Made by a program: the position numbers and the translations under genes
The notes under the pieces: model-generated
Seen by the model: the letters and a program-made list of their open reading frames with translations, nothing else
Databases searched by the model: none
What the model was told of the DNA's origin: nothing
In this document: in pieces, positions 48,121 through 48,405 of the stretch
Layout: each line of letters starts with the position of its first letter
Numbering within the stretch: position 1 is the first letter of the stretch
NCBI RefSeq assembly: GCF_055900595.2
Contig: NZ_CM148325.1
Reading direction: 5' to 3' (one strand)
DNA length: 64,000 nucleotides

Positions 48121-48405
48121 GAATTGCCGGATAAGACGCGCAAATCGTCGCATCAGGCGTTGATTGCCGGATGCGGCGTGAACGCCTTATCCAGCCTACG
48201 GTCAGCAACGGTTGTAGGCCTAATAAGACGCGCAAGCGTCGCATCAGGCATCGTGCACCGATTGCCGGATGCGGCGTGAACGCGTTATCCGGCCTACGTT
48301 CGGCAACGACTGTAGGCCTGATAAGACGCGCAAGCGTCGCATCAGGCGCTCATTGTCGGATGCGGCGTGAACGCCTTATCCGACCTACAGTCAGCAACGG
48401 TTGTT
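48121..48405. repeat. Large BIME array (about 3 tandem ~90-100-bp REP-pair units) in the aceA-aceK intergenic region
   Basis: Repeated ttgccggatgcggcgtgaacgccttatcc.gcctac.gt.agcaacggttgtaggcctgataagacgcgcaagcgtcgcatcaggc units. Confidence 0.9.

Follow-up and report, generated by a model that had tools for sequence, protein, structure and literature searches.

REPs have been described in the spacer between aceA and aceK of the glyoxylate bypass operon since the late 1980s. A sequence-only reading of a 64,000-nt stretch of DNA (contig NZ_CM148325.1 of assembly GCF_055900595.2; this whole stretch is called the window) described the REP array at this site as unusually large and suggested that its length could tune the expression of aceK relative to aceA. 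The locus raises the question of what the array consists of, whether its length is exceptional and what the array may do. The array is the known aceA-aceK REP cluster of the glyoxylate bypass operon, and it is present here as a rare six-unit allele.

The aceBAK locus and the aceA-aceK spacer

The window is a part of the E. coli chromosome; an IS10 insertion aside, it shares ~99.9% identity with strain Z0117EC0005. The aceBAK operon is encoded on the minus strand of the window, and aceB, aceA and aceK were matched to NCBIfam equivalog models. The features of the locus other than the array itself are as follows.

49745-51364, minus strand, aceB (NCBIfam)
48411-49715, minus strand, coding sequence of aceA (isocitrate lyase; NCBIfam NF011645, 802.7 bits), TAA stop codon at 48411-48413
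48389-48410, minus strand, aceA 3' leader before the first REP, 22 nt, mRNA GCAACAACAACCGUUGCUGACU, in which a small GCAAC/GUUGC hairpin is possible (segmentation and fold)
48098-48125, minus strand, aceK leader, 28 nt, mRNA AAUUCACUGCUCCUGAUGAGGGCAACAA followed by AUG, with a weak GAGGG Shine-Dalgarno element
46361-48097, minus strand, coding sequence of aceK (isocitrate dehydrogenase kinase/phosphatase; NCBIfam NF002804, 940 bits)
47728-47759, minus strand, terminator-like hairpin and T-run inside the coding sequence of aceK, of which they occupy about +339 to +370 (terminator scan)

The aceA coding sequence is 1305 nt long as annotated in the near-identical record NZ_CP098223.1; the open reading frame for aceA in the window is 48411-49730 and starts at an upstream ATG. 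The aceA-aceK spacer is 48098-48410, exactly 313 bp, and the array lies wholly in this extragenic region between the aceA stop codon and the aceK start codon.

The hairpin inside aceK is where the AceK-int sRNA has been reported to have its 3' end, and it likewise matches the premature termination reported in aceK. Presumably, the MG1655 aceK coding sequence starts at 4,218,596, and on this assumption AceK-int corresponds to +284 to +368. AceK-int is Hfq-dependent and is located at MG1655 4,218,879-4,218,963, and its 3' end has been mapped in K-12 (PMC8175672; PMC10687069).

Architecture and identity of the array

The sequence-only reading had proposed tandem units of about 90-100 bp, each a pair of inverted REPs, in the 313-bp gap. 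This arrangement was confirmed: the spacer contains six REP palindromic units, in which Y and Z2 types alternate, and these make up three BIME-2 units with spacings of 98 and 91 bp. In mRNA order, the units and linkers are as follows.

48355-48388, minus strand, unit 1, Y, GTAGGTCGGATAAGGCGTTCACGCCGCATCCGAC; 2 mismatches to the Y consensus, 7-bp stem intact in the fold
48348-48354, head-to-head linker between units 1 and 2, 7 nt
48312-48347, plus strand, unit 2, Z2, 5' GTAG on the plus strand; 0 mismatches to the Z2 consensus used
48298-48311, tail-to-tail linker between units 2 and 3, 14 nt
48264-48297, minus strand, unit 3, Y; 1 mismatch to the Y consensus
48250-48263, head-to-head linker between units 3 and 4, 14 nt
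48214-48249, plus strand, unit 4, Z2; 1 mismatch to the Z2 consensus
48200-48213, tail-to-tail linker between units 4 and 5, 14 nt
48166-48199, minus strand, unit 5, Y; 1 mismatch to the Y consensus
48159-48165, linker between units 5 and 6, 7 nt
48126-48158, plus strand, unit 6, truncated Z2 hybrid, mRNA GCCUGAUGCGACGAUUUGCGCGUCUUAUCCGGC; without the GTAG/CTAC tail, 29 nt at 93% to Z2 by blastn-short

The head-to-head linkers are 7, 14 and 7 nt long and the tail-to-tail linkers are 14 nt long. The successive segments (leader 22, Y 34, linker 7, Z2 36, linker 14, Y 34, linker 14, Z2 36, linker 14, Y 34, linker 7, truncated Z2 33 and aceK leader 28) add up to 313 nt. A direct-repeat search gave three copies of a 98-nt unit with identities of 100%, 88% and 67% and start-to-start distances of 98 and 91. 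The identity of the third copy is 67% because the repeat unit extends past the array into aceA. Tandem Repeats Finder, at a minimum score of 30, reported no array in the spacer; we take this result as a limit of the tool for ~3 copies of 98-/91-nt units and not as evidence against the repeat. Small open reading frames over the array (48067-48279, plus strand; 48110-48244, minus strand) were treated as chance reading frames in repeat DNA.

Unit 1, which adjoins aceA, possesses a compensated stem change from C-G to T-A relative to the Y consensus (GGTCGGAT...ATCCGAC versus GGCCGGAT...ATCCGGC). Compensated stem changes are a general property of REPs (PMC3333891). In the same work, the GTAG tetranucleotide 5' to the foot of the stem is given as a defining feature of REPs (PMC3333891), and five of the six units carry GTAG (CTAC on the opposite strand), the exception being the aceK-proximal Z2 hybrid.

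A REP of E. coli is an imperfect palindrome of 30-40 nt with the Y or Z2 consensus, and the REP-family identity that had been read from the letters alone was supported by several further results. When up to three mismatches were allowed, the Y consensus matched eight places in the window and the Z2 consensus matched four, and neither consensus matched in 100 shuffles. The transcribed strand of the spacer has a predicted MFE of -162 kcal/mol (z = -7.4). Moreover, each pair of units matched the Rfam family naRNA4 (RF02564), which has as its type locus the cluster REP325, made up of two-palindrome REP repeats:

48315-48385, minus strand, units 1 and 2, 85.3 bits
48217-48294, minus strand, units 3 and 4, 80.6 bits
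48125-48196, minus strand, units 5 and 6, 61.6 bits

All three matches are above the gathering score of the family (59.5 bits), with E-values from 1e-14 to 2e-9. As a likeness at the sequence level, the RF02564 match reflects the shared Y+Z2 sequence family and says nothing of HU binding. The array is one of many related places in the genome, since the 611-nt query used in the census below matches E. coli genomes at a median of 33 places.

BIME-2 consists of Y and Z2 REPs in inverse orientation in multiple tandem copies, and the copy number at each locus varies among strains (Ton-Hoang et al., PMC3333891). The order in the window is Y-Z2-Y-Z2-Y-Z2*, where Z2* is the truncated hybrid, and the strands alternate strictly; the array thus corresponds to BIME-2 in unit type, orientation and tandem arrangement. 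We use the label BIME-2 rather than "atypical BIME" on the basis of the unit types only, the S/s/l/r linker motifs being no part of this basis. Taken together, these results make it practically certain that the sequence is a REP/BIME-2 array.

An intrinsic terminator within the array was considered and rejected: a terminator scan of 48098-48410 found no intrinsic-terminator-like site on either strand, and the nearest site on the minus strand is inside aceK, at 47759-47738.

Copy number of REP units across E. coli

The census covered 5,426 complete E. coli genomes. A query composed of the array and its flanks (611 nt) found the exact 313-bp allele in 14 of them (nine at 100% and five at 99.0-99.3% identity). 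For the survey of spacer lengths, only the flanks were used as a query, and evenly spaced rows of the ranking were taken as two samples of 58 genomes, 116 in total. The lengths were distributed as follows.

280 bp, 59 of 116 sampled genomes
182/183 bp, 22 of 116
48 bp, 15 of 116
124 bp, 10 of 116
215 bp, 8 of 116
85 bp, 1 of 116
378 bp, 1 of 116

We extracted and segmented one locus for each length class. The loci form an allelic series:

0 units, 48 bp, REP-free
1 unit, 85 bp
2 units, 124 bp
3 units, 182 bp, K-12
4 units, 215-228 bp
5 units, 280 bp, the commonest E. coli allele
6 units, 306 bp, Nissle 1917
6 units, 313 bp, the window
7 units, 378 bp, at least 6 genomes, revealed by a synthetic 12-unit query

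The 378-bp allele is the longest E. coli allele seen, and rare longer alleles are possible; in at most about five genomes the flanks were not joined within 700 bp. The spacer lengths of a B strain (NEBExpress) and O157:H7 correspond to 5 and 3 units. From 0 to 7 units, the flanks are identical or near-identical and the junctions are in register. The aceK leader is kept with small differences in every REP-bearing allele, and AAGGAG is found instead in the REP-free allele. The terminal Z2 hybrid of the type of unit 6 is common to the 2-, 4- and 6-unit alleles, and the window allele is equal to an N96-type 4-unit allele with one extra aceA-proximal Y-Z2 pair. The predicted stability of the fold rises steadily with the number of units: from 0 to 7 units, the predicted MFE values are -19, -30, -53, -85, about -103, -138, -155 and -184 kcal/mol.

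These results bear on the claim that the array is unusually large. The array is long compared with that of K-12 (182 bp, 3 units) and is the largest REP cluster in the window. In contrast, the mode in E. coli is 280 bp and 5 units, a 7-unit allele of 378 bp exists, and the type strain of E. albertii possesses an array of 542 bp and 11 units. Thus, given the E. coli series and the E. albertii array, the window array is long only by comparison with K-12; it exceeds the mode by a single unit and is itself exceeded by others, and the term "unusually large" is only weakly supported. The sequence-only reading had also named two outcomes that would count against it, namely that the sequences are not REPs or that the repeat count is invariant and unremarkable. 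The sequences are REPs and the count varies from 0 to 7; however, the count in the window, one above the mode, is otherwise unremarkable. The aceA-aceK site was already known to be polymorphic, and within the 0-7 series the window carries a rare but unremarkable allele.

The exact count of the REP-free 48-bp allele was 718 of 5,426 genomes (13.2%), in agreement with the 116-genome sample. In this allele (E. coli Z0117EC0054 and 717 others), aceK is preceded by a near-consensus ribosome-binding site, AAGGAG, and the spacer contains a GC hairpin of 7 bp. Similar 48-bp spacers occur in Phytobacter massiliensis and Intestinirhabdus alba, and the allele may be ancestral or imported. The spacer of E. 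coli BS-04 is a K-12-like 3-unit allele with a 29-nt A-rich insertion in the tail-to-tail linker, CCAACTACAAAAAAAAAAACAACCACAA (approximate boundaries); this insertion may be an assembly artefact or a small insertion.

The spacer in other Enterobacteriaceae

A species-level genome collection was scanned once with the conserved C-terminus of AceA, and 60 Enterobacteriaceae species were compared. Within Escherichia, the spacer of E. whittamii is 308 bp. In the type strain of E. albertii (NBRC 107761), 542 bp follow the aceA stop codon and contain 11 units (five Y-Z2 pairs and a further Y); none of the E. coli alleles described above comes near this length. Several of the E. albertii units are degenerate, the CTAC tail being changed to CAAC and an additional base being present in the Z2 stem. 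The compensated Y variant of unit 1 in the window also occurs in the last Y unit of E. albertii, and in one E. whittamii unit the 5'-side T of this variant occurs alone, uncompensated. The spread of this variant suggests a shared REP subtype or gene conversion.

Outside Escherichia, the spacer is 48-137 bp long and its content is unrelated between genera. The 60 species differ in whether the spacer contains one GC-rich hairpin, a BIME array or, as in Citrobacter, Salmonella and Klebsiella, two REPs of a different type. The spacer is significantly structured in 52 of the 60 (z < -2; median z -4.4), as judged from mononucleotide shuffles and across species that are related. This result fits selection for some stable RNA structure after aceA and not for six units particularly. 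We regard the structure across species as supportive rather than decisive evidence for a function.

Comparison with characterised REP systems

The aceA-aceK cluster of E. coli K-12 (182 bp) is at the same locus, with the same flanking leader and aceK 5' leader, and its Y and Z2 units agree with those of the window array in type and orientation. The K-12 cluster possesses three units (Y-Z2-Y), whereas the window array possesses six (Y-Z2-Y-Z2-Y-Z2*), mixes 7- and 14-nt head-to-head linkers and ends in the truncated Z2 hybrid.

REP325/naRNA4 of K-12 (yjdM-yjdN) is the closest experimental analogue of the aceA-aceK array. Both are BIME-2-type tandem arrays of two-palindrome units inside an operon. 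REP325 differs in belonging to another operon and in having six repeats (12 hairpins), whereas the window array has three (6 hairpins). REP325 stabilises the upstream mRNA and lowers the expression of the downstream gene ~8- to 10-fold, partly as a Rho-dependent attenuator, and the attenuation yields a ladder of hairpin-ended transcripts (bioRxiv 10.64898/2026.03.23.713779).

The malE-malF cluster (22034-22139) in the same window resembles the aceA-aceK array in that REPs are located inside an operon, downstream of a highly expressed gene; however, it contains only 2-3 units, in contrast to the six units between aceA and aceK. Its Y units are on the same chromosomal strand as those of the aceA-aceK array and the operon is transcribed in the opposite direction, and therefore its mRNA carries Y in the opposite orientation. 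Newbury, Higgins and colleagues reportedly established malE-malF in 1987 as the classic case of REP-dependent stabilisation of upstream mRNA and of differential operon expression.

The array also resembles the substrates of the REPIN/RAYT (TnpA-REP) system, which are inverted REP pairs with a conserved 5' GTAG; the difference is that there is no RAYT gene within the window. Variation of copy number and linkers at one locus has been ascribed to cleavage by TnpA-REP and recombination (PMC3333891). For the allele in the window, origins by RAYT, replication slippage and homologous recombination cannot be told apart from the sequence.

Possible function of the array

In the part of PMC5435950 that cites Chung et al. 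1993, the ratio of the aceB, aceA and aceK products is given as ~0.3:1:0.003 together with premature termination in aceK, and the drop from aceA to aceK is explained not by the spacer but by inefficient translation together with termination that occurs prematurely inside aceK. A full-text search of the accessible literature for aceK and REP found no experiment on the REPs of the aceA-aceK spacer.

By analogy with REP325 and with malE-malF, we cautiously favour a mechanism at the level of mRNA, in which the array protects the upstream transcript and attenuates read-through into aceK. The array would be transcribed within the aceBAK mRNA and would form a row of very stable hairpins. These hairpins would stop 3'-to-5' exonucleases, so that processed or terminated aceBA transcripts would outlive the aceK segment, and they would cause a partial, probably Rho-assisted, attenuation of read-through to aceK. 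Both effects would add to those of the weak aceK ribosome-binding site and of the terminator-like hairpin ~340-370 nt inside aceK, and the combination would keep AceK far below AceA. The copy number itself would shift by in-register recombination, slippage or RAYT-type processing between near-identical units. Selection probably acts little on units that follow the first one or two hairpins, and neutral copy-number turnover is an equally good explanation of the extra units.

The neutral explanation can also be extended to the array as a whole. According to this explanation, BIME-2 was amplified by RAYT or by recombination in a tolerant spacer, the array serves no function specific to this locus, and drift and hitch-hiking account for its length. 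The range of 0 to 7 units within E. coli and 11 units in E. albertii agrees with this idea, as does the rarity of the window allele (14 of 5,426 genomes), and such a spread of copy numbers is equally expected from neutral turnover. Strain-to-strain variation of copy number is, moreover, general in BIME-2 (PMC3333891). The array is dispensable, because 718 of the 5,426 genomes (13%) are REP-free at this site. However, most of the Enterobacteriaceae sampled retain some stable hairpin at the junction despite complete turnover of the sequence, even the REP-free E. coli allele possesses the 7-bp GC hairpin, and the effects of REP325 are measurable in an analogous operon position. We regard a wholly neutral array as possible but doubtful. 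It is chiefly the extra units that the neutral explanation addresses, and with this scope it does not conflict with the mRNA-level mechanism. The opposite extreme is that the series of 0-7 units (11 in E. albertii) acts as a stepwise dial on the AceK:AceA ratio and hence on the set-point of isocitrate dehydrogenase phosphorylation, the REP-free allele compensating via its AAGGAG site. We consider such a dial unlikely; if it were real, the aceA-aceK spacer would be a natural experiment on how REP copy number quantitatively tunes operon polarity.

Other roles have been proposed for REPs at the level of DNA, of the nucleoid and of translation. Gyrase is said to cleave BIME-2 in vivo (Espeli and Boccard, 1997), and the array has BIME-2 composition (Y/Z2); by analogy, DNA gyrase might bind and cleave the array and thereby relieve the supercoiling that transcription of aceBA, two highly expressed genes, induces downstream. 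REP-free alleles are common, however, and hairpins that are not REPs occupy the same place in other genera, which is better explained by a role of the RNA than by a DNA motif specific to gyrase, so that the gyrase role seems improbable. The three Rfam matches above the gathering score on the transcribed strand would be expected if the array were a source of naRNA4-like nucleoid-associated RNAs, which were proposed to bind HU, to bridge cruciform DNA and to condense the chromosome (PMC4550694). As noted above, this match reflects the shared Y+Z2 sequence and not function. Moreover, a 2026 study, to which the original laboratory contributed, found no stable complex of HU, naRNA4 and cruciform DNA, no change of the nucleoid upon deletion or overexpression of REP325 and no REP-REP contacts in Hi-C (bioRxiv 10.64898/2026.03.23.713779). 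The model is thus largely refuted for REP325, and we rejected chromosome condensation via naRNA4 and HU as very improbable for the aceA-aceK array. Finally, a REP immediately downstream of aceA could in principle down-regulate aceA translation by stalling the terminating ribosomes, with tmRNA tagging (the mechanism of Liang, Rudd and Deutscher 2015). As quoted in a passage of PMC12306157, Liang et al. 2015 give 15 nt past the stop codon as the greatest distance at which a REP induces stalling. In all REP-bearing alleles, the distance from the aceA stop codon is 22 nt to GTAG and ~25 nt to the stem, and AceA is the most abundant product of the operon according to the ratio quoted above. Because 22 nt exceeds the 15-nt limit, we rejected the trans-translation class of REP, which is hardly credible at this site.

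The finding itself is of little weight: the site is known, copy variation of BIME-2 is documented (PMC3333891) and the 313-bp allele is present in 14 public genomes. The compiled series may nevertheless serve as a natural test system, because it comprises 0-7 units, includes the REP-free genomes (13%), whose ribosome-binding site differs, and is complemented by some kind of hairpin in most related genera. This natural series suits a test of the recent proposal of "REPs as tunable terminator-stabiliser dials", and AceK lends itself to such a test, since cells are known to keep its dosage extremely low.

Other REP clusters and features of the window

By blastn-short, the window contains seven REP clusters, of which the aceA-aceK array is one. 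The others are as follows.

13223-13321, plsB/ubiA
17806-17927, lamB-malM
22034-22139, malE-malF
25244-25293, upstream of psiE (24718-25128, minus strand), overlapping the 3' end of a small annotated hypothetical open reading frame
29976-30053, downstream of pgi
35945-35980, pepE/yjbB

Shorter clusters had been noticed after plsB, lamB, malE, psiE, pgi and pepE. They are real at plsB, lamB, malE, pgi and pepE; in contrast, the one at psiE is located upstream of that gene and not after it. All eight Y REPs of the window (13223-48388) have 5'-GTAG on the minus strand, whatever the direction of the neighbouring gene, and the full-length Z2 units are on the plus strand in all cases but one (35945-35980). 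The orientation is constant across lamB-malM and aceBAK (minus strand) and malEFG (plus strand). This bias may be related to the chromosome strand or to replication rather than to transcription.

The IS10 element is complete (1329 bp, 44998-46326) and is flanked by a 9-bp target duplication, TACATCGCG, at 44989-44997 and 46327-46335. It encodes a 402-aa IS4-family transposase (45105-46313, plus strand) and contains an Rfam match to RNA-OUT (45043-45112, minus strand, 97 bits). The ends of the element, CTGATGAATCCCC... and CTGAGAGATCCCC..., are what we take to be IS10 ends. The element lies 34 nt past the stop codon of aceK, where it disrupts arpA at its 3' end, and is missing from the otherwise 99.9%-identical record NZ_CP098223.1.

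Among the RNA features, the STnc430 sRNA (Rfam; 29765-29913, plus strand) adjoins the REP pair of pgi, the lysC lysine riboswitch (Rfam) is at 31969-32165 (plus strand), and a complete rrn operon is at 53668-58679 (minus strand), with a tRNA (annotated as tRNA-Glu in NZ_CP098223.1) and StyR-44 (Rfam). The sRNA, the riboswitch and the rrn operon are expected for this chromosomal region.
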